From a virus (Duplodnaviria; Caudoviricetes), in IMG/VR virus record IMGVR_UViG_3300013383_000001, positions 102,365-166,364 of that record: DNA of 64,000 nucleotides; one strand, given 5' to 3'. Shown here one piece after another: positions 1 to 61,850 of the stretch. The position numbers and the translations under genes were made by a program. Under the pieces are notes generated by a model that was not told the origin of the DNA, made no database searches, and was given only the letters and a program-made list of their open reading frames with translations. Position 1 is the stretch's first letter, and every line of letters starts with the position of its first letter.

Positions 1-1695
1 CATTCATAGATTGTAAATTTCACTAAAGTAAAAACACATGATTTTACTAAATTACCTGATATGTTGGTATCTTCTTATGCTACAGAAATCACAGATAGAA
101 AAGGTTTTTATAAATTATCTATTTCTAATTTTTTACATATATTAGAGCAAGTAAGTCCAGAGGATTATAGACAATTTGTAGACCAAGAAGGTAAGCGACT
201 TCCTCTATCTAAGATAATGAAAAAAGAAGGATCAGAAGAACAAAAGGACTCTGCTAGAAAACTCATATTAGATTTATTTAATAAAATTCCTTTAACCCAG
301 TTTATATGCAAGGGGATTTCTGTAACAGATAGTACTATAACAATACGAACCTCTGTTGGGACATTGTCTAATACATCTAGCTTTGAAGGGACTTACAATA
401 CTATAAATCAATTAGTAAAATTTCAATCGGTTTACAAAGGATTTCAAATTTATGCTAGAAATAATGATGGAGTAATTGATTATTTTTATGCAAATCAACA
501 AGGATTGTCCCCAAAAATGAGAGTAAATAAATATTATAGCACAATTGAGGAATGTTTTAAAGCTGTAGATAGTATTGTGGAAACAGATACATTTAAAAAT
601 AGCTGGCATCCTGAGTTTAGATCTCTCAATACTAATTATTTAATTACTAAATTTGAATCTAAAGAAACATTATATCCGGGACATATTATAAAGATATTAA
701 ATATTCCTATAAATACTAGAGTGTTAGATAGTCGTTTTTCAACGATAATACGTGGGAATTATACTCTCGCAAATTTCATATAGTTATTTGGCACGGATTC
801 TACTAAAGTTTCCAAGACAATAGATAGTATAGAATCTGCTGCTATACTTGCATATTTATTATCTGAAAAAACTCCTGAAGATTAGAGTAAATATACTCTA
901 GATGAAGCACTTGATATAATAAGTAAAGCAAAATCAGAGAATAATTACAAAACCTATTTTGTAACGGATTTTGATAAAGAAAAAGGATATAATTCAATAT
1001 ATGTTTTTGACATGGAAGGAGATGTTGAAGAAGAAGTTGGAGAAAAAAAGCCAGAACCAATAATAAGACAATTACAATCTTTAGCAGATTGGTTTGAAGA
1101 GAAATTTGGAGTACCTACAGAGGTAGTAACAAATTCAGAATTTAATAGCTATTCCCCAGAAGGTGCAGAACGAGCAATATATAGAGATGGAAAAGTTATT
1201 TTAAATGGTTAGACTGCATCTACTAATTCTCAGTTATTTGAATATTCTGTATTGATTTTACAAGCAATAAAATCATAGTATAAAGGATTGTATGATTATA
1301 TACGATAGACTGCAGAAAATATGGATTGGTTTCCTCGAACTTTATTGAACTAGATGGATAGAATAAAATCTGACCAAAATACTGATCCAGATGTTATTCG
1401 AGAAACTGCTATAGATGCTATTCTTGCTTAGTAGTTGAAAAAAATGTTTAAACAAACAACTCGTGAAAAAATATTTGATGGCTAGGTTGAGAAATAGGTT
1501 GAAGAAGTGGTACGAACTATTGTAGATGATGGAAAAACTGACATTGGATAGTTGTATAAAAGAACTTTAGCTAATTTGTTTCAAAATATATTCTCGTATA
1601 AAAAAGAAGGTGCAGGATTACTTCCTTCAACTTTAAAAATAACTGATGTAGCAGAAGAAGATATTAATAAAAAATTTAATTAGAATTGTGGATAA
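1..1695 (+). CDS. Large virion-associated protein, C-terminal part (5' truncated by the window), TAG recoded
   Basis: Frame 1 is open from base 1 to TAA at 1693-1695 apart from about 13 in-frame TAGs. Track ORFs 61..783 and 1012..1212 are fragments of it. Confidence 0.8.
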
Positions 1696-1697
1696 AT

Positions 1698-4600
1698 ATG
1701 AGTGGTGAAAGTTGTTCAATAAATGTAGGAACTCGTACCTTTAATTCATTTCAATTAAGAAATTTAGTCTATTCTACAGATATTTCAGATCCGTTTGCAG
1801 TAATACATGGATTATAGGATTAGGAATTTTATCCTTAGTATGAAACTACATTAAAGTTGTTTGAATTGTAGAAGCAAGGCAGAGAGTTAAGAAAGAAAAT
1901 TAATACTTCTTTTAATACAGGTAATCTTGAGTTAGAATTAGAAGAATCTGCAGATCAAGATATTATTACTATCTAGCAATTAATGCTTAGCGATATATTT
2001 GATGAAGTAAGCTCTGGAAGTAGATTTAATTTGGAAGAATATAAAGCACACACGATTCAACAACTTCAAAATACAGAAGGACTTACTGAAGAGCAAGCAA
2101 GAAAAAAAGTAGAAATATTGATTGATAATTGGATGCAAATTGCAAAAGATTCAGCAGCACTCCACAAAGCAATACAATTATATAATGAAGATGAGACCAA
2201 GTTTGAAGAACTTTGTATGTAGGATGAAGACATAAAACCATATAAATTACTTCTTTCTTAGTTACATGCATCTATAACTAATAGTTTGAATACCTTTATT
2301 TAGAAGGGTATTTTGATGAAGGGATGTAGAATTGTAAATGGTCTCAATTTGGTTAGCGAAATGAAAGATTTGGATAAGAAATTATTCGGACACATTGACA
2401 AAATTATAATTGATAAATACAATGATGTATATATCATTAATTACAAATTCACAGAAGGAGGATTTAAATTATCTACAACAAAATTGGAAAACTGTAGATA
2501 TCAAATGGCTTTATTGACAGAAATGCTTGCAAAAAAAGGGATAAATGTTAGAAATATAAAGTCGTATGTAATTCCTGTTAAGTTAACATATAGCACTCAA
2601 GATGATTCTTTGTAGAATCTTAAAAAAGTATCGGTTGATTCTCCTTTTAATTTATCTATTTCTAACAATAGAAATAGATCTACAAAACATTTAAATACTG
2701 CGCGACATTTTATTGACGCTCCGATTTAGATTAAAACAAGTATGTAGGATGTTAATGCTGTAAAAAAATAGATAGATTGCTTGTTTAGTTCTACTGATAT
2801 AGCAGCTGATGGTGTAACAGTAATTCCAAAAGCATGGATAGCTAGAAATCGATCAAAAATTAAAGTAAGTAATTCCCCTGAATATGCATACGAAGTTAAT
2901 TTTGGAGAAAATGATACTGCATATATAAAAAGCTCTGCTCCTCCCTCAAATAATTAGGAAATATTTGAAGAAATAATAAAAAGACAAAATGATTTATTAG
3001 AAGATGACGATTCAGTAGTAAGAACACTTGTTAAAAATGTAAGAGCAGGAATCAATGGAGAAATGTTTAATTTATGTGAATCTGGAATGTTTGGTAAAGC
3101 AGGTTACTTCTTAAATAATTTATTTGGTCAATACTTTAAAAAAGACAAAGATGCTCCTCAAGAATATGAATTTATTAGAAATGATGTTCTAAATTCTTGT
3201 AATATTATATTAATCAAAAAAATAGGTAAAAATGGTATGCCTGATCAAATAGATGTGTTTAGGATAAGTGGATTTGACTTAGATCAAAAAGTCAATCTAA
3301 AAAGAACATCACAACATATATTTGGAGATATATTAAGTTAGCTTGATTCAAAAGTTAAAGAATCAATCAAATATAAACCTACATACGGCAATATAGAAGC
3401 ACTTGTAACAATGCTTTTATTAAATCAAGTACTTCCTAAAATATCTGGAGATTTCACATTAGGATCAGTCAATGTTGTTTCTACTAATTACACAGGACAA
3501 TATATTCCTTATTCTGCTAGACAATTAAATACTGAACTATTTTCTACAGCAACAGAAGTATTAAATGATTTTTCAGAATTAACTGTTAATAACAATTTCA
3601 GTAATTAGAAATTTGTAGATCCTATTGATTTAGTTGTTGAATAGTTTAGAAATATTATTTCAGATCCTGGAGTATATAATTCTGAAGTTGATAAATACGA
3701 AGACATGGGGTTTGATGATTTATTAACAGTAAACAGTAAAGAAGCTAAGTTAACTCTTCTTAGATCTCTTGCTAAAAAATTAGTTGAAGATAAAAATTGG
3801 TTAGAGAATTTTGAAGCAGTAAGAAGATCTAAAAATGGATCAAGGTGGAATATACTATACAGAAGAATACTAGAAGCGATAGCTTATTATGATGTTGGAG
3901 AAGTAAGTTCTGTGGAAGAAAAAATGTCTTTTGCAGATTCTAAAGGAATGATTTCTAGTAGAATTAGAAATAAAAATGTTCAATTAGTAACTGAATTATA
4001 TACTAGAACTATCAATGAAATATCTGAAAAAGTGCATATTAAATGGGAGCCTATTAGACAAGTATTCTTCTAGTTCTATAAAGATATGGGATATTCTACT
4101 ACGAGGAATGCTGTAATAGGTGACTTAGTTAGAATATTTGATGATCTATATGCTCAAGACGAAAGAGGAGAAAGAACTCTTAGACTTTTAAACCCATACG
4201 ATAATGCAGATATGGCTCAAATTAAAGATAAAAGAGAAATTAAACGTAAATTTCTCAAAAGAGTATTATTTGAGTTCGCAAAGGTAAGATACCCTCAAAA
4301 AGGAATTGCGTTTAACTTTAAGAATGAGAATGATCCCGATCTTCAAGAGTTTATCAATAGACATAGACAGGATTATTTCAATATACCACTCACAAGAGCA
4401 AGTAAAAGTACTCGTAATGTAAAGATGAGTGTTAAAGAGAAATGGAAAGATACAGCTCGCCTTGCAGTTAAAATTATCAAACATCCTAAAGCAGCTTTTG
4501 AAGAACTTTATAATGATGTTGCTAATCCTGATGAAAGAAATTACTATGAAGATGCAGGTATAGGTAGTTTACAAGTTCGCAATAAATTCTGGAAAGGAGA

Positions 4601-6323
4601 TGATCTTGATGAAAGAGATAATTACATTGCTCAACAAGGTGTTAATTACTTTGAAACTAATCTTGAATCATTACTTATTGACTATATAGAAAAAGATATT
4701 CAAACTAAAGGATATTAGAAAGCACTTCTTACAATTAAAGGTGTAATTCTTTAGTTGGATTTATTAAAAGGAAGTCCTAATCTTAAAGCAATTGCAGAAC
4801 AAACTATTAAAGAGATAGAAGACTACGTTAAAGTCAATGTGTTTAATACGTCTATTATGTCTAAGTTGTCTCAATAGATTATGGCAATATTAGCTATTCC
4901 TAAACGTATTGTATCTGATACATTAATTGGAGGCCATGTAGTAGGAGGTGTCCGAGATGTTTTTCAAGGTACTTGGGAGAATATGTTGCGAGTGATTGTT
5001 AAGTTTGATACTAAGCTATCAGCTAAATCTTTAAATAAAGCATACGTTGAAGTAACTAAGAATGTATTTAAAAATGCTAGATCTATCAACATAATTAATC
5101 AATTATGTTAGATATATCGTATTTCTAATGTGGATGTTGCTCGTATATCAGAAGGTTTGAAAACCGATAGAGGTATGGCTAATTTCAAGACTTGGTTATA
5201 TGCTTCTCTTCGTAGACCTGACTTCCTTAATCGTATGGTAATGTTTGTAGCGCATTGTATGGAAGATGGTGTGTATGATGCTTTTGATATCAAAGATGGT
5301 AGATTAGTATATGATTGGAAAAAGGATAAACGATTCAGCATCTTTGCAGCAGGTAAAACAAGCGATCCAAAATATAAAGAATAGATGGGTGCATATTATA
5401 ATGCAGTAAGAGCATATAATGCAGATCACCCTGATGCTACCATTGGATTTAACCCCTTTGAAGAAGGAGCTACACCACTTCCTATGCCGTATTCTTTTAA
5501 TGATGTTGAGAATATTAAAAAGGTTGCAAATAATATATACGGTTCATACGATAGAAGTACTCGGCAAGGAATTGAGAATATATTTATAGGACAGACATTT
5601 GGAATGTTTGCTACTTGGATGAATGGTATATATGCCAACTGGTTTACAAAGCCTGGAACTTACTCTACTGGTTAGTTTGAAATGCAACAAGCTAAAGATG
5701 ATCAGGGTAACTTATTATACTTTGATATAATGGGTAATGTGATTGTTCAAAGAGTAGACACAGATGGTAATGTAAAATATTACTATGATGGAACAGACAC
5801 AGAAGTAACAGAAGGATTGGATAAAATAGTCCCTGTTATGGATAAAGTACCTATTCCAATACAAGGTATCTTCTATACTCTTAAAGAATGTGGTAAAGCC
5901 TTAAAGAATGGAGACTTTAAAGAAGAGATATGGTAGAATGATGTTAATAAAGCTAATCTTAAACGATTAATGGCAGAGCTATTAGCTTGGTTAATATTTG
6001 GAACTATTTATAAGTGTGTTCTCACTCCTGGATTTAAAGAATTTAAGAAAGGAATGAAGGAGCGAGATATACTTACAAATGCAATTACAGAGCTTATTTA
6101 TAAATCATCATCTTCATCATATGATAGTTTTAAAGGATTATATAATATAATAGATTTTGTTGGAAATGCTGATGGAACACCTATTTATAAATAGAATAAT
6201 AGACTACTTATGGATTTAGGTAAAGTTGCTTTAGGAGATAAAGGATTCTTCGATGCTTTTAAAGGTAACATAGCCATATTTAAAAATTTCCAATATTCTA
6301 TATCAGCAGAAATGAAAAAATAA
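1698..6323 (+). CDS. ~1541-aa large virion/cargo-type protein with a degenerate PD-(D/E)XK-like segment, TAG recoded
   Basis: ATG at 1698 lies just after the previous TAA. All frame-3 track fragments (1983..6194) end in TAG and join up to TAA at 6321-6323. Motif GHIDKIIIDKYNDVYIINYK...YQMAL. Confidence 0.8.
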
Positions 6324-7933
6324 TGGGAATACTAGACACTTTAACTGAACATTTAAAGAAACTGAATGGAACTCCTTCTGGTAAACCTTCAAACTTAATA
6401 AGTGAAATTATTTAGGTGGGGGGGGTGAATTTAGTTAAACAACAATTTTCCCCAATGGTAGAAACCTTTTCAAATATGTTTCCATCTTTTACAAATTCGG
6501 GTGAATATACTGTTAAATCTGGAGATAATCTTTGGAATATTGCTAAGAGTCATGGGATAAGTTTAAAAAAATTAAGAGAACTTAATCCACAATAGAAAGG
6601 AGATACTATACATGTTGGAGATAAATTGAAAGTGAAAGATGGGAATAGTTCTAAAGGAATGCATGCAGTAGATATAGTGGAAGAAGAGCAGAGAGAAAAA
6701 GAATATAATAAATCCAATGCTACTGCTATATTTAATTTTAAGCATAATGGATCATTTATAGTTGTAGACAAAGCTAATACTAGATTAACAGTATATGATA
6801 AAAATAACAATCCATTATTTACTACTACAAATATTGCATCTGGAGCTTCTGGGAATGACTACAATACTATAACATATACTGATGATTCTGGAGATCTTAA
6901 GGATATGATGGGTAATAATTCTACTCCCGCCGGAATAACATATATTGGAAGTATATCTGATTATCATGGTCGTCCTTCTTTTACCAGACAGAGACAAAAT
7001 AGAGATGGGTCTCGTGAAGATATTGCTTCTTCTATGCATTATAGTAGTAATACTAGTAAAGCACATATAAGTAATGGATGTATAAGAGTTGGAGGAGACG
7101 ATATGAAGAAAATTGCGAAATACGTAACCGAAGGTACTCCAATTTATGTACTTCCTGAAAAACCTGGATCTAGATTTGTATTACGAGCAGGAAAACTAAA
7201 TTATATTGCAAATAATCCATACGGAGTTGATACTGGTGAGAAGAAGTTATGGGATGATTATAATGTATATATAGATAAATCATATAATCCTATAACTATT
7301 GAACTAAAAAATAGAACACTAGACCCAACTTATAATCACAATGCTACTGTATTTGCAGAAACAATTTCTAGAAATAAATATCAAGTTTAGAAATAGTTTA
7401 ATTTGAGTAATTATGAATACAATAAATTGGCACAACTTGCAATGGGTATTGCTGATCAAGAGTCAAAATTTGGTACTTCTACAAAATATAAGATGAAAAA
7501 TGGAACATCTATGAATTAGGATCTGATAGCTGTAAAACACTTCTTTGTAGATCATCTTATAAAAGGTAAACCTCTTGTTTCAAATAGTAAAGGAATTACT
7601 CAAATTAAATATGGAGATGATATAAAAAACAAGGAGCTACAAAATTTATATAATTAGTTTGGAATACACAGAGGAGATGATTTAGATAGTATTGAAAATA
7701 GTGCAAAAGCCACTATGATTAGACTTGCTTTTATTTATAATTCAGAAATAAAAGGAAGAAATTTTACAGGAGCAGGAAATAAACCTATTTCTCCTTGGGA
7801 TGCACTACTGTATATATATAATGGAACTAAGTATAACTTAACTAATAAGTCTGCAACCCCTGAAGTAAATAAGTATATTAAAAATATAAATCGTTACGCT
7901 AATAATTTCAAATATACAGAATATAGATATTGA
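6323..7933 (+). CDS. 536-aa peptidoglycan-acting protein: LysM + YkuD L,D-transpeptidase + SLT/lysozyme-like domain, TAG recoded
   Basis: TAATG overlap start, 6 in-frame TAGs, TGA stop. LysM: YTVKSGDNLWNIAKSHGISLKKLRELNP. YkuD: IVVDK...TPAG...SMH...SNGCIR. SLT-like: QESKFG...SKGITQI...YNG. Confidence 0.8.
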
Positions 7934-7981
7934 AAAAAATAAGGGAGAACCCTAGGTAATTAAACCTAAGATTCTCCCTTT
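7934..7981. terminator. Intrinsic terminator between the convergent blocks
   Basis: AAGGGAGAA...TTCTCCCTT stem flanked by an A-tract and Ts. Confidence 0.7.
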
Positions 7982-8075
7982 AACTATTTTTAATGTATGG
8001 AAAATGCACTACAAAGACATTCGATGTTCTACTAGTGCCAAAATTAGGCACTGTTAGTGTATCTGTATAAAACTT

Positions 8076-8140
8076 AAAAAAAAATAAAAATAAGGAAGCA
8101 TAGATTCATATAGAATCTACACTTCCCTTTAGTTTTTTAT
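8076..8140. terminator. Second hairpin terminator, probably bidirectional
   Basis: GGAAG-TAGATTC/GAATCTA-CTTCC stem with an A-tract before and a T-tract after. Confidence 0.55.
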
Positions 8141-8166
8141 TTAAATGTAAGTTAATGTTATTAACT

Positions 8167-8634
8167 TCATTTGGTTATTCTTACTTTCTTACATGCTGCA
8201 GTTACTCCTTTGAGCGGAACTATCAACTTTGTTACTTCACCATTTCCATAATATATACACATAGTATTATTTTTTTTCAGAAGATTTAATAAAGTCCTGT
8301 CATAATCATCGAAAACTATTCTTAGATAAGAACCGTCCTTGTCTTTAATACTTACAACTTTAAAATCATCAAGAGATTGAAGTTCAGTTGAATCATCAAA
8401 ACTTATAATACAAGTCATATAGTATGTTGTTTCTTTTTTAGGTATGCATGCACCATAAGGACTAATATTTGTAAGAATAATAAGTTGATTATTTTTAAGA
8501 TTGTACATAGTTACAAAATTAGAATAGTAATCTGTATAAGAAACACAGTTACCTCCTTCATATCTCCAATATGCCGCACTTATAGAACTAACACTACATA
8601 CAAACGCAATAAATATAAATATAAGTTTCTTCAT
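8167..8634 (-). CDS. Exported hypothetical protein with signal peptide
   Basis: MKKLIFIFIAFVCSVSSISA signal peptide. Start moved to ATG 8634. Confidence 0.7.
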   Translation of the reverse strand: MKKLIFIFIAFVCSVSSISAAYWRYEGGNCVSYTDYYSNFVTMYNLKNNQLIILTNISPYGACIPKKETTYYMTCIISFDDSTELQSLDDFKVVSIKDKDGSYLRIVFDDYDRTLLNLLKKNNTMCIYYGNGEVTKLIVPLKGVTAACKKVRITK

Positions 8635-8635
8635 A

Positions 8636-9379
8636 TTAAATATAGTAATTATATTGTTCTTCTTTATCTTCATTTTGTTTAACTAATTTCTCAATTAGCT
8701 TTTGACTCTCTTTAAGTTGATCTTGTAAAGATGCACATACTTTCTGAAGTTCTTTAATGTCTTCAGAATTTTGAGTGATTCTTTCTTCATGATTCGCAAT
8801 AGCCCAAATTACTGCTTGACCAAGATCATTGAGGTGATATAACTTAGTATCTGTTTTACAACCTGTTTCAAAATCCCTTAACTCATTCTCAATAACGGAT
8901 AAATAATTCTTTCTAATTAACTCATTATTACATTTGCGAATTGTAGATTCAGGCATATTTATATGTTTAGCAAGTTCTACATTTGGTAAAGAAAGTTTTC
9001 CATATCCTTCTACATCTTTATACATGTACTGTTGAGCAGCAACTAAATATGACTTTGTAGTAAATGATACATCATCTTTATTTATAAATTCTGGACTAAA
9101 TGGTTCAAATTTCTTATATTCATTAAAAATATATTCTTTACCTCTACCTTTAGTTTTAATCTCTATGTATCCATTCTTTTCTAGTTCCTTAAGACTATTC
9201 TGTATAGTAGGAATACTTGCACCAGATCGTTGGCTTATCTTGGTTAAAGACGGAAAACATCCATCCTTACCATCAAATGATTTCAATACTGCATAAATAA
9301 GTTGATCCCTTGGTTTTAAATCAGTTTCTCCCATACCATTTGGAACTTGATAATGTTGTTTACTTTCTATATTTTCCAT
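8636..9379 (-). CDS. Double winged-HTH, replication-initiator-like protein (paralog of 30834..31535)
   Basis: CFPSLTKISQRSGASIPTIQNSLKELEKNGYI HTH, second HTH ELAKHINMPESTIRKC, C-terminal coiled coil. Confidence 0.7.
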   Translation of the reverse strand: MENIESKQHYQVPNGMGETDLKPRDQLIYAVLKSFDGKDGCFPSLTKISQRSGASIPTIQNSLKELEKNGYIEIKTKGRGKEYIFNEYKKFEPFSPEFINKDDVSFTTKSYLVAAQQYMYKDVEGYGKLSLPNVELAKHINMPESTIRKCNNELIRKNYLSVIENELRDFETGCKTDTKLYHLNDLGQAVIWAIANHEERITQNSEDIKELQKVCASLQDQLKESQKLIEKLVKQNEDKEEQYNYYI

Positions 9380-9489
9380 ATATCATCAATTAAAATTAAA
9401 CATCTTCATCTACATAATCTATATGCGATATTACATAAATATTTATAAAGTACAAAAGTTTAGTATGTATAATCTGTTTTTAAAATCTG

Positions 9490-9597
9490 GTGCGAATCAC
9501 TCGCACCATTTTGCATGATCATCGCACCAGATTGTAAGGTCGTCGCACAGGATTGCATATAACTATACTTAAATACTATACTTATAACTATACTTAA
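9490..9597. repeat. Iteron-like direct repeats (3 x ~21 nt, TCGCAC core) plus ACTATACTTA triad
   Basis: TCACTCGCACCATTTTGCA / TCATCGCACCAGATTGTA / TCGTCGCACAGGATTGCA, then ACTATACTTA x3, upstream of the wHTH gene. Confidence 0.7.
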
Positions 9598-9748
9598 ACG
9601 TTCCGTATATTTCATTTCTAAGACACCCATACATCGATTTTCAGACACAAGTTGATGAGTTATGTTACCATGAATTTGAGAATCGATATATGAGCCTCTA
9701 TGAAAATCAACTATCTGTAGATGAAATATTTAACTTTATATAATGATT

Positions 9749-10171
9749 TCAAATCAATTTTCTCTTATCCTTAATCTTAAAAAGTACAATAGGTGCTTCA
9801 TCCATTTTATCTTCTCCAAACCATACTTCATTTCTAAAGTCATATATAATATTCTTATCTTTTGAGTACTTCTCTTTAAGAAGATTAAATTTATTATCAG
9901 CTTCTTCTTTAGTAAGATTATCATACTGTTCTAAATCAGTATCTTTAATAACTGGAGGATTTACTGGACCTCCATTTATCTTAGCAATGACACTATATAC
10001 TTTATTATCATCTACAGTATTACAATCATCAGATATAAATATTATATTACATATATCATCTACATCTTTTGAATGCATTAGAGTATCGAATAAGCTCAAT
10101 AAATCATTAGCTGCAATATAGCGTTCAGATCTATTAAAATATTCTACTTTATAAAGGTTATTTTTAATCAT
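9749..10171 (-). CDS. Hypothetical protein
   Basis: ORF in a tightly packed minus-strand operon. N-terminus resembles 10790..11455. Confidence 0.65.
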   Translation of the reverse strand: MIKNNLYKVEYFNRSERYIAANDLLSLFDTLMHSKDVDDICNIIFISDDCNTVDDNKVYSVIAKINGGPVNPPVIKDTDLEQYDNLTKEEADNKFNLLKEKYSKDKNIIYDFRNEVWFGEDKMDEAPIVLFKIKDKRKLI

Positions 10172-51933: not shown

Positions 51934-51949
51934 AGCAGTTATAATTTAG

Positions 51950-52021
51950 TACCTCCAGATGGAATCGAACCATCATTTAGGGTTTAGAAGACCCTTATTC
52001 TATCCATTGAATTATGGAGGC
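51950..52021 (-). tRNA. tRNA-Arg(UCU)
   Basis: GCCUCCA/UGGAGGU acceptor, AGGGU-CUUCUAA-ACCCU anticodon arm, GAUGG-UUCGAUU-CCAUC T arm. Confidence 0.9.
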
Positions 52022-58202: not shown

Positions 58203-58423
58203 GAATATAAAATGTTTAACCCTAATTGTCAAAAGAACAGAGAACGCAAATATTCTAGTACTTGCGTTCTCCGATTTCCTTCCCTCAACTGAGGAATGAA
58301 CTATTTTTAATAGATTTATAAGGCATCTATTAAGCCTTGCTAATATAATTTCTTATTAGCCTAAGACTACGGGTAGGAAATGCGAGACTCGAACTCGCAC
58401 GATCACAATGATCAAGGGATTTT

Positions 58424-59168
58424 CTTACAAAACAATTTGTTTTGCTTGGACTATGTCTTAACCATATAGTCAAACTACTTAGGTTGTGGGTATATAGTCT
58501 CTACACATTTATAATGATAAAATCATTAACTTAGCTCGGCGTTCTTGCAATTTATACGGTTTGCACATTCACCGAATTAGCCCACTTCTACATCAGAAGT
58601 TTCCTTCTGTGCACTCATTGCCTTACCTCTATAGTTGTCAGTAAAAGCATGACAATTAGGACAGAGTATTTGTAAATTCTCTATTCTTAAATCATCTTTT
58701 ACACCATTTATATGATGTAGTTCAAGAGCTATAGGTTTACCTAGCCACTCTGTTCTACCACAACATTCACACTTCCTTTCTTTAATCCCTTCATTAAGGA
58801 GCCTATGTCGAAGATGATTTGTTGTTACATAAGTAGAATGTTCAACTAATATTTCTTCTATAGGTTGTTTAGGCTTTATTTGCCTATATCTATCTCCTTG
58901 ATTCCAGGCTTTTCCAGTCATGTGCGAGGTATCTAATTTTAATTCTTTTATCTTTCGTTTAACAGTATCATAATTACTTCCTGCCACTTTTAATCCTATC
59001 TTTCGCAGAACTTCAGCATAAGACATACTTATCTTAACTGCATCTACAAATTGATCATCAGTCCATTTTCTTTTACTCATAATGTGTAATTTATTAATAC
59101 ACAAAATTAATAAAAAGAAATTGTGTTTACCAATTAAACAAAAAGTTAAATGAATTAAAACTTTCTCA
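58424..59168 (-). mobile_element. Group I intron (trnL-UAA / IC3-like, 745 nt) with an HNH ORF in L1
   Basis: IGS GAGU pairs with exon ACUU (U.G). Core AAUUCGGUGAA, CGCCGAGC, UGUAGAGACUA, ACAUAGUCC. Terminal G. Confidence 0.88.
58577..59080 (-). CDS. Intron-encoded HNH homing endonuclease (167 aa)
   Basis: CECCG...LELHHINGVKDDLRIENLQILCPNCH. Start moved to MSKRKW. The 3' end overlaps the ribozyme core. Confidence 0.9.
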   Translation of the reverse strand: MSKRKWTDDQFVDAVKISMSYAEVLRKIGLKVAGSNYDTVKRKIKELKLDTSHMTGKAWNQGDRYRQIKPKQPIEEILVEHSTYVTTNHLRHRLLNEGIKERKCECCGRTEWLGKPIALELHHINGVKDDLRIENLQILCPNCHAFTDNYRGKAMSAQKETSDVEVG

Positions 59169-59212
59169 AAGTCCCTCGTGTCTACCAATTCCACCAATTT
59201 CCCGTAATTTAG

Positions 59213-60195: not shown

Positions 60196-60210
60196 TTTTA
60201 TTTATATTAG

Positions 60211-60282
60211 CAGGGAATAAAGGAATCAAACCTTTTCCTCTTAATCCAAAGTTAAGTGTGACTATCATTACACCAATTCCCT
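60211..60282 (-). tRNA. tRNA-Gln(UUG), non-canonical T loop UUUGAUU
   Basis: AGGGAAU/AUUCCCU acceptor with G73, CUUAA-CUUUGGA-UUAAG anticodon arm. Confidence 0.8.
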
Positions 60283-60580
60283 GAATATTCAGGGAATACT
60301 ATTCTCACGAACCATACTCCCTTTCTTCATCACCATTCCAATGACAAAATTACCACGACAAATTCAATTCACAAATTAGATTAACTATTTTTTAGTAATC
60401 TTAAAAAGTATTTTTCCTATTCCTGCGAACAGAAGATTGATTACACTACCTGTAAGGAACAGTAGTGCGAGTACTAATATTGCTCCCATATTCTCCAATT
60501 AGAATTACCAAATACGAATTTATATTCATTAGCTTCTTTATAAGTATTGAATCTCTTTATAAAGAAACCATAACTATCTC

Positions 60581-60873: not shown

Positions 60874-60910
60874 TAAAAATAAAAAGTGCTGAGAGAAACT
60901 CCCAGCACTT
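60874..60910 (-). terminator. Intrinsic terminator ending the ncRNA array transcript
   Basis: AAGTGCTGGGAG/CTCTCAGCACTT stem plus T-tract. Confidence 0.75.
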
Positions 60911-61036
60911 ACCAATCACTACCCGATTGGCTAGGCTTGCTCATGTTTTAGATGATGGGCTCCCATCATGAAGCGTTGTTATAAAGCCTATAACGGCACC
61001 TCATTAAAACGGTAGCATGCTTACCTAGAGAGTTAT

Positions 61037-61850
61037 TAGTTCCTAGTATGGATTTCACTCCACACTAGGATGTACAACCTATTCATCACGAACTAGTTGC
61101 TTAGATTCATTATTTTCTAATAAAAATTAGTTCCTAGATGAAGTATTACCTTACATCTAGGATTACTAACCTATCTATCACAGACTAGTTAGTTGTGTAA
61201 TTATAAATATAAATTAAAAATTATTACCTACGGGAATTTTAAATCAATTCTTAATGTAAAACTTATCGACATGAAATTATTTATAGACATCTAGCCTCCC
61301 AATCAGGACTTGAACCTGAAACCTACAGTTTAGAAGACTGTTGCTCTATCCAATTGAGCTATTGGGAGTAATTAAGAGTACTATCTATCACAGACTGTAC
61401 TCTTTAAACATAATCAACCAATTAAAAACCATTCAACAATGAACACACCCTGTGTAACCTACATTAATGAATCCCGCATTTATCACGAAGTCGTTCAATT
61501 ACAACAGGGGTGATTAGTTCCTAGACAGAGTTACCAGCTCTATCTAGGATAATTAAGTTAGTTCATCACGAATTTACTTAACGTTTAATCATTCACCAAT
61601 AATTTCAACACAAACAATGAACTAGTTCCCTGTAACGATATTACTCTTTACAGGGATTGCTCAATACATCTATCACAGACATATTGAGAGGAAACCAATT
61701 TATTAACTAACTACAGCTATCTAGTTCCCGAGAAGAATATTACTTCTAACTCGGGATTACTAATCTATTCATCACGAACTGATTAGACCAAAACAAATTC
61801 ACTCAATGACAAATTAGTTCCCAAGGAGAGTAATTAGCTCTCCAAGGGAT
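61037..61850 (-). ncRNA. Array of six tRNA-minihelix-like hairpins (UCC...GGA-A-CUA), five preceded by a conserved GUGAU-loop hairpin
   Basis: Minihelices at 61040-61070, 61131-61162, 61518-61549, 61626-61656, 61725-61756 and 61818-61849. Stems covary while length (~12 bp) and ends are conserved. Confidence 0.7.
61295..61368 (-). tRNA. tRNA-Arg(UCU), embedded in the array
   Basis: CUCCCAA/UUGGGAG acceptor, ACAGU-CUUCUAA-ACUGU anticodon arm, UCAGG-UUCAAGU-CCUGA T arm. Confidence 0.92.

Follow-up and report, generated by a model that had tools for sequence, protein, structure and literature searches.

Hairpins of about 12 bp, here called B, occupy tRNA slots in a tandem array on the minus strand of the phage genome IMGVR_UViG_3300013383_000001. 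Every copy except the first, B1, stands behind a second hairpin, A, which is a leader hairpin of tRNAs across the clade. B is a strand-specific structure of RNA type and is under strong purifying selection. The preferred reading, given a probability of roughly 0.45, is that the B copies are minihelix-like small RNAs that would be released by tRNA-processing enzymes from modules made of a leader and either a tRNA or a hairpin.

The record is 166,364 bp long, with 31% G+C and a 77-bp terminal repeat. Its final 64 kb form the window, which is the whole stretch of DNA analyzed here, and positions refer to the window unless the genome is named. The plus-strand late genes (window 1-9900; genome 15-112 kb) are readable only when TAG codes for an amino acid. 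Taking TAG as sense raises the open-frame cover from 13,026 to 29,783 aa, and a single 3,996-aa ORF contains 65 TAGs. Genes of the minus-strand block in the window follow the standard code, and their products include DNA polymerase A, ligase, helicases, and primase. Zeta-type crAss-like phages match this genome in size, recoding, giant proteins, and gut origin (PMC7886860, PMC12386605). These properties fit a TAG-recoded, crAss-like phage of about 166 kb, consistent with the Zeta type.

With default settings, ARAGORN finds three tRNAs only, all on the minus strand (Arg at 51949-52021, Gln at 60210-60282, and Arg at 61294-61368). When introns are permitted, it also calls a tRNA with a 987-nt intron at genome 3905-4969, beyond the window. 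The 3' acceptor end of this intron-split tRNA (TACCCCA-A-C after the T-loop GTTCAAATCC) matches that of the CTA suppressor tRNAs of relatives. It is probably the missing amber suppressor, interrupted by a group I intron. A 206-aa HNH ORF lies at window 58374-59203 (Pfam HNH, E = 1.9e-5). Among the ten ORFs adjoining the array, Pfam gave HNH matches alone, in intron ORFs, and the early ORFs beside the array matched no Pfam family.

The original prediction described six minus-strand hairpins that start with UCC and end with GGA, and all six were recovered, at 61041-61849 (Table 1). The proposed span of about 12 bp with a 6-7 nt loop agrees with the 12 stacked positions found here (11-13 bp, some with a bulge or U.U), and the stems are unlike one another between copies, as the same prediction had noted of their internal sequences. 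B had been entered there without its leader hairpin; the repeat unit is A plus B, larger than that entry. Within the array, the B units lie about 95-105 nt apart. The array region folds at z = -12.6 relative to shuffles, and the 157-nt stretch at 60880-61036, which includes the terminator hairpin, has a folding z of -4.8. On the minus strand, the spacers after B3 (61590-61625) and after element X (61410-61445) have a U/G-rich motif in common, GUUCAUUGU ... AUUGGU. This motif occurs twice more in the spacer before the tRNA-Arg of the related genome G001.

Table 1. Features of the array and its surroundings, in window positions.
Feature	Position	Strand	Description
Hairpin B1	61819-61849	-	UCC...GGA; 12 positions including two U.U; loop CUAAUUA; without leader hairpin
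Leader hairpin A1	61756-61790	-	Apex UUC-GUGAU-GAA, with G.U and A.A beneath; 3 nt upstream of B2
Hairpin B2	61726-61756	-	7 bp, internal loop, 4 bp; loop GUAAUA
Leader hairpin A2	61657-61691	-	Apex UCU-GUGAU-AGA; 3 nt upstream of B3
Hairpin B3	61627-61656	-	Loop GUAAUA
Leader hairpin A3	61550-61584	-	GUGAU loop, looser apex; 3 nt upstream of B4
Hairpin B4	61519-61549	-	12 bp including one U.G; loop CUGGUAA
Element X	61446-61512	-	Bulged outer stem of about 12 bp round an A-like GUGAU hairpin and a single-stranded 3' segment
Leader hairpin A5	61372-61406	-	5 nt upstream of tRNA-Arg
tRNA-Arg(UCU)	61294-61368	-	Inside the array; followed by G73-CUA
Leader hairpin A6	61162-61196	-	2 nt upstream of B6
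Hairpin B6	61132-61162	-	9 bp, bulged U, 3 bp; loop GUAAUA
Leader hairpin A7	61070-61104	-	4 nt upstream of B7
Hairpin B7	61041-61070	-	12 bp; loop GUGAAA
Structured non-coding stretch	60911-61036	-	Between B7 and the terminator; multibranch fold
Intrinsic terminator	60874-60910	-	12-bp G+C-rich stem, then U tract; closes the transcription unit
Leader hairpin A, GUGAG variant	60289-60323	-	Upstream of tRNA-Gln(UUG) at 60210-60282

A covariance model (R1), which the original prediction had named as a check, was built, and B shows covariation and a constant helix length among relatives. Alignment A3 covers the arrays of five related phages and holds 17 distinct variants of B. In this alignment, 95.1% of cells are paired, compared with 35-56% in controls in which the partner was slid. 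Double-sided changes occur in nine of the 12 pairs, and the three open-end pairs are invariant. All 17 variants keep 12 stacked positions, with a total length of 30-32 nt. R1 scores 45-52 bits on the six copies of the array and never exceeds 20 bits in the rest of the 166-kb genome. The acceptor-like end of B is fixed and comprises A-1, U1-A72, C2-G71, C3-G70, an unpaired A73 (16 of 17 variants), and usually C74 (13 of 17), while the distal stem and the loop are variable.

The alignment also contains 14 cells with G.U, which would become A.C on the opposite strand, and the R1 score is 52 bits for the sense strand versus 19 bits for the antisense strand. The fold of B is therefore assigned to the sense RNA. 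This strand preference bears on an explanation at the DNA level, in which the hairpins would be promoters or origins for a virion RNA polymerase or for replication, extruded from single-stranded DNA as in phage N4. The distance of 1-5 nt from the foot of A to the RNA 5' end recalls the N4 geometry. Moreover, gp66, the virion RNA polymerase of crAss-like phages, has a preference for single-stranded DNA, and its early promoters lack a known motif (bioRxiv 10.1101/2020.03.07.982082). However, the conserved G.U and many others would turn into A.C mismatches on the template strand, and the fold is favored on the sense strand alone. Because the G.U pairs are strand-specific, a promoter role is disfavored, and the DNA-level explanation is considered highly improbable.

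The loops of B (GUAAUA, CUAAUUA, CUGGUAA, GUGAAA, and UUUGGCGA) do not follow the T-loop consensus UUCRANY. ACUA follows B where an intrinsic terminator would have a U run. A search of Rfam with cmscan, at the gathering threshold and at E <= 10, returned only the three tRNAs and no match to A or B, and the cloverleaf model for tRNA (RF00005) reports neither hairpin.

Other candidate identities for B were considered and rejected. A ToxI-like RNA of a type III toxin-antitoxin system, for which exact repeats of about 34-45 nt in tandem beside a gene of ToxN type would be expected, does not suit units that differ in sequence and are spaced as described above, and the neighboring ORFs are without a Pfam match. 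A mimic of CRISPR repeats was set aside on two grounds, namely that the stems differ between copies and that an exact search with B7 had no match in 185,579 representative prokaryote genomes. No hidden CUA-anticodon stem-loop was found within the array, and the complementarity of B to the phage genome is limited to chance 11-13-mers.

The leader hairpin A has 11-13 bp and a GUGA or GUGAU loop, with a fixed G.U wobble and an A.A mismatch below the apex. The apex has the form YYY-GUGA(U)-RRR, in which the triplets covary (UUC/GAA, UCU/AGA, and UCC/GGA). In the 30 sequences of alignment A4, 87% of cells are paired, double changes affect ten of 12 pairs, and the G.U is retained in 26 of the 30. 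Matches of R2, the model of A, in the present genome are confined to the tRNA/array region. In G002, G004, G008, and G009, whose DNA polymerase is about 50% identical, R2 locates A 3-5 nt upstream of tRNAs. The tRNAs preceded by A are those for Leu and Arg in G001, Cys in G004, and Asn and Gly in G002, G008, and G009. A combined pattern and fold scan additionally places A 3 nt before a tRNA-Ala in G007, where the sole R2 match is a copy ahead of a protein gene. Furthermore, G001 has A and a tRNA-Leu(UAA) at the position held by element X in the present genome. The same leader thus sits 1-5 nt upstream of B and of genuine tRNAs, and since A stands before both, B fills tRNA slots.

Hairpins with a UCU-GUGA-AGA apex that are followed by U tracts are present in G007 (L151:8737-8770) and G006 (L150, minus strand, about 5971-6004), with a protein gene next in G007. 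In these two genomes, an A-type hairpin may double as a terminator. Comparisons of A with an anticodon arm, a hammerhead core, and a K-turn were unsuccessful, as the motifs do not match. The idea that the GUGA loop of A docks onto the CU:AG base of B was also rejected, given an implausible geometry and no correlation across units.

Five array types were compared, those of the present genome (G000), G001/L173 (167 kb), L154/L155 (154 kb), L168, and L170. Each array carries 5-9 B units, and the order is common across the relatives. Between G000 and G001, B2, B3, B6, and B7 do not differ in a single letter, even though the spacers and the tRNA-Arg have diverged and the early protein adjoining the array has 42% identity. 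The differences that do occur in B among the relatives are compensatory changes. For instance, B2 is identical in G001 and L154 and shows a compensatory G-C to A-U change in L170, and B7 is identical in G001 and L154 with compensatory changes in L168. B3 is identical in all full-length arrays that keep it (L155 has no copy there), and B6 is identical in G001 and has one G-C to G.U change in L154. The outer stem of element X covaries in L154 (GCAAC/GUUGC versus GUAA/UUAC).

The junctions of the arrays resemble recombination of neighboring units; in L168, for example, leader A6 is joined to a B7-type hairpin. Right after the last B, G001 (L142:6109-6196) and L154 (L154:4341-4429) encode a tRNA-like RNA that scores 42.9 bits with the Rfam tRNA model. 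In place of an anticodon arm, this RNA has a 26-nt insert with a 5-bp GUGA-capped hairpin, and it is without a usable anticodon. In G000, the corresponding slot after B7 holds a different structured stretch (60911-61036).

Many copies of an invariant short motif on variable stems, in numbers that range from 5 to 9 among close relatives, would also be expected if the array were a sponge or scaffold for a phage or host RNA-binding protein that reads the A apex and/or the UCC/GGA end. Analogues are the multi-hairpin sponges CsrB and RsmZ and the phage pseudo-ToxI repeats that neutralize a host toxin. The adjoining early proteins, which match no known family, are possible partners. Yet A precedes lone tRNAs in distant relatives that are without B, which suits a processing or leader role better. 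In addition, no candidate binding protein was found, and the GGA is paired in B, unlike in CsrA sites. A sponge or scaffold is accordingly regarded as doubtful.

The sole intrinsic terminator detected, placed by the scan at 60884-60910, lies downstream of the array, and no Bacteroidetes -7 motif was found inside the array. On this basis, the array is most simply read as the non-coding 3' part of one early minus-strand operon. The last of the small early ORFs (102 aa) ends with its stop codon about 17 nt before B1. Abundant and persistent early non-coding RNAs, whose role is unexplained, have been described in the crAss-like phage phi14:2 (bioRxiv 10.1101/2020.03.07.982082).

The placement of the array between ORFs and a terminator, and of B1 so close to a stop codon, is also compatible with a role in punctuating the transcript. 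In that case, A and B would serve both as cleavage sites, for RNase III, RNase E/G, or a nuclease of the phage, and as 3'-end protectors, thereby separating and stabilizing the early mRNA and the tRNAs. Once excised, the hairpins would be functionless. The terminator-like A hairpins with U tracts in G006 and G007 favor this explanation as well. However, six to nine units follow one another with nothing between them to separate, and single B sequences stay identical as the tRNA-Arg and the spacers diverge. The conserved part is an open helix end with an unpaired A, unlike the mid-helix boxes of RNase III, for which 12 bp would also be short. Punctuation alone is therefore judged somewhat unlikely.

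B is restricted to few phages. Across ten related genomes, R1 matched array copies only, at 32-54 bits, and no match elsewhere reached 25 bits. B is thus limited to one narrow lineage of TAG-recoded crAss-like phages of about 166 kb. A blastn search of 50,697 phage records matched the tRNA alone. A loose scan of IMG/VR for the A plus B pattern gave mostly chance matches and one true relative, and exact scans of IMG/VR with B2 and B7 found one relative, the same one. An exact scan of JGI metagenomes with B3 found one contig, of the G001 type. These exact scans indicate that the B lineage is rare in IMG/VR and in JGI metagenomes. Contigs from four DNA runs show that relatives with rearranged arrays are present in gut samples.

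The 3' ends of the hairpins and of the tRNAs are similar in part. N73-CUA, which had been claimed to follow the tRNAs of the window, does so in three of three, including the tRNA-Arg that sits within the array. The A73 and CUA signature attributed to B holds for all six copies here but does not extend to the relatives, where CUA is not kept. Following GGA, the arrays of this genome and its relatives have the tails ACUA, ACUG, ACUC, ACAU, ACCA, GCAA, AUAA, AUUA, and ACAA. CCA is not encoded after B, save for an ACCA tail on two units in relatives. Most tRNA genes of the clade end in N73-C74, followed by U or A. No CCA-adding enzyme and no RtcB were found among the proteins encoded by the phage. 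Rnl1 was not found in the phage either, a weak blank given that the control gave no match anywhere.

According to the preferred reading of B as minihelix-like RNAs, a module consists of A and, 1-5 nt on, either a real tRNA or a 12-bp B. Host tRNA-processing enzymes would handle B like a minihelix, with RNase P cleaving at its 5' end and either RNase Z or exonucleases cleaving behind A73. The product would be an anticodon-less RNA of about 32 nt that may gain CCA. The first three or four pairs and the discriminator of B, the part of a tRNA that acceptor-end enzymes check, are fixed and the rest is free to covary, the pattern to be expected if an enzyme inspected the acceptor end only. The released B could perhaps act via this acceptor-like end, as a competing substrate or decoy for an enzyme that reads the first pairs and the discriminator. 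One enzyme of this kind is the toxSAS FaRel2, whose choice of tRNA depends on the acceptor stem (PMC11559606). A decoy role of B is nevertheless a guess. A more specific version, in which the excised and CCA-tailed B would mimic the acceptor end of one host tRNA type and absorb a defense enzyme that targets the tRNA 3' end, or would serve a non-ribosomal reaction as amino-acid carrier, seems improbable.

Several observations count against the minihelix reading. A is also about 12 bp, and this length is not unique to B. The loops of B are without the T-loop consensus, the CUA tail is unconserved, the lineage is narrow, and no CCA-adding enzyme was found in the phage. Moreover, in G006 and G007, the A-like GUGA hairpins that run into U tracts have the appearance of ordinary terminators. 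A stable hairpin only 1-5 nt upstream might also hinder, rather than aid, bacterial RNase P.

Known RNAs resemble the array in some respects. Synthetic minihelices and natural hairpin substrates of RNase P, such as the precursors of 4.5S RNA and of the P1/P7 C4 RNA, share with B a hairpin of about 12 bp and an unpaired 3' base of the discriminator type. Unlike these, B has no encoded RCCA or T-loop, is preceded by a leader hairpin, and occurs in six to nine tandem copies. Plant mitochondrial t-elements and mascRNA-type signals are tRNA-like stems within longer transcripts and presumed substrates of RNase P or RNase Z, and B1 likewise follows an ORF. However, they are single cloverleaf-like structures at mRNA ends, whereas the present array consists of plain hairpins with nothing in between. 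In phage T4, species 1 (rnaC) and species 2 (rnaD) are structured RNAs other than tRNAs that lie beside the tRNA genes and are probably co-transcribed with them, as B may be. These RNAs are 120-140 nt long, have one copy each, and are unexplained in function, in contrast to B, which is about 31 nt long, has 5-9 copies, and is accompanied by leader hairpins.

Repeated viral units that join a tRNA-type processing module to hairpin RNAs are also found in the TMER array of Murid herpesvirus 68. This is a eukaryotic virus in which Pol III transcribes the units, the hairpins are pre-miRNAs, and the vtRNAs receive CCA and are uncharged. The order differs as well, since the tRNA-like part precedes the hairpin in TMERs and the leader hairpin precedes the minihelix here. 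A precedent for a repeated phage RNA that acts by mimicry against host abortive infection is pseudo-ToxI, the phage RNA repeats that reportedly mimic a host antitoxin RNA, according to work by Blower et al. in 2012. ToxI repeats form pseudoknots in tandem, exact 36-nt units that ToxN cleaves, whereas B units vary in sequence and lie about 100 nt apart.

The crAss literature that was searched does not mention the A and B elements. Two previously unannotated RNA families, both with clear covariation, emerge from the analysis. One is a tRNA leader hairpin found across the clade, and the other is a 12-bp hairpin specific to the lineage. B replaces tRNAs in their slots, and its conservation exceeds that of the neighboring tRNA. 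The Crassvirales are dominant gut phages, and phage tRNA clusters are now viewed as countering host defenses that target tRNA. Even under an ordinary reading, A and B are signs of the way these phages assemble and cleave their tRNA operons. If B is processed like tRNAs, the hairpins would be natural minihelices and would offer a handle on a host enzyme that reads only the acceptor end during infection. If a decoy or carrier role is true, this would be the first natural array of minihelix decoys or carriers.
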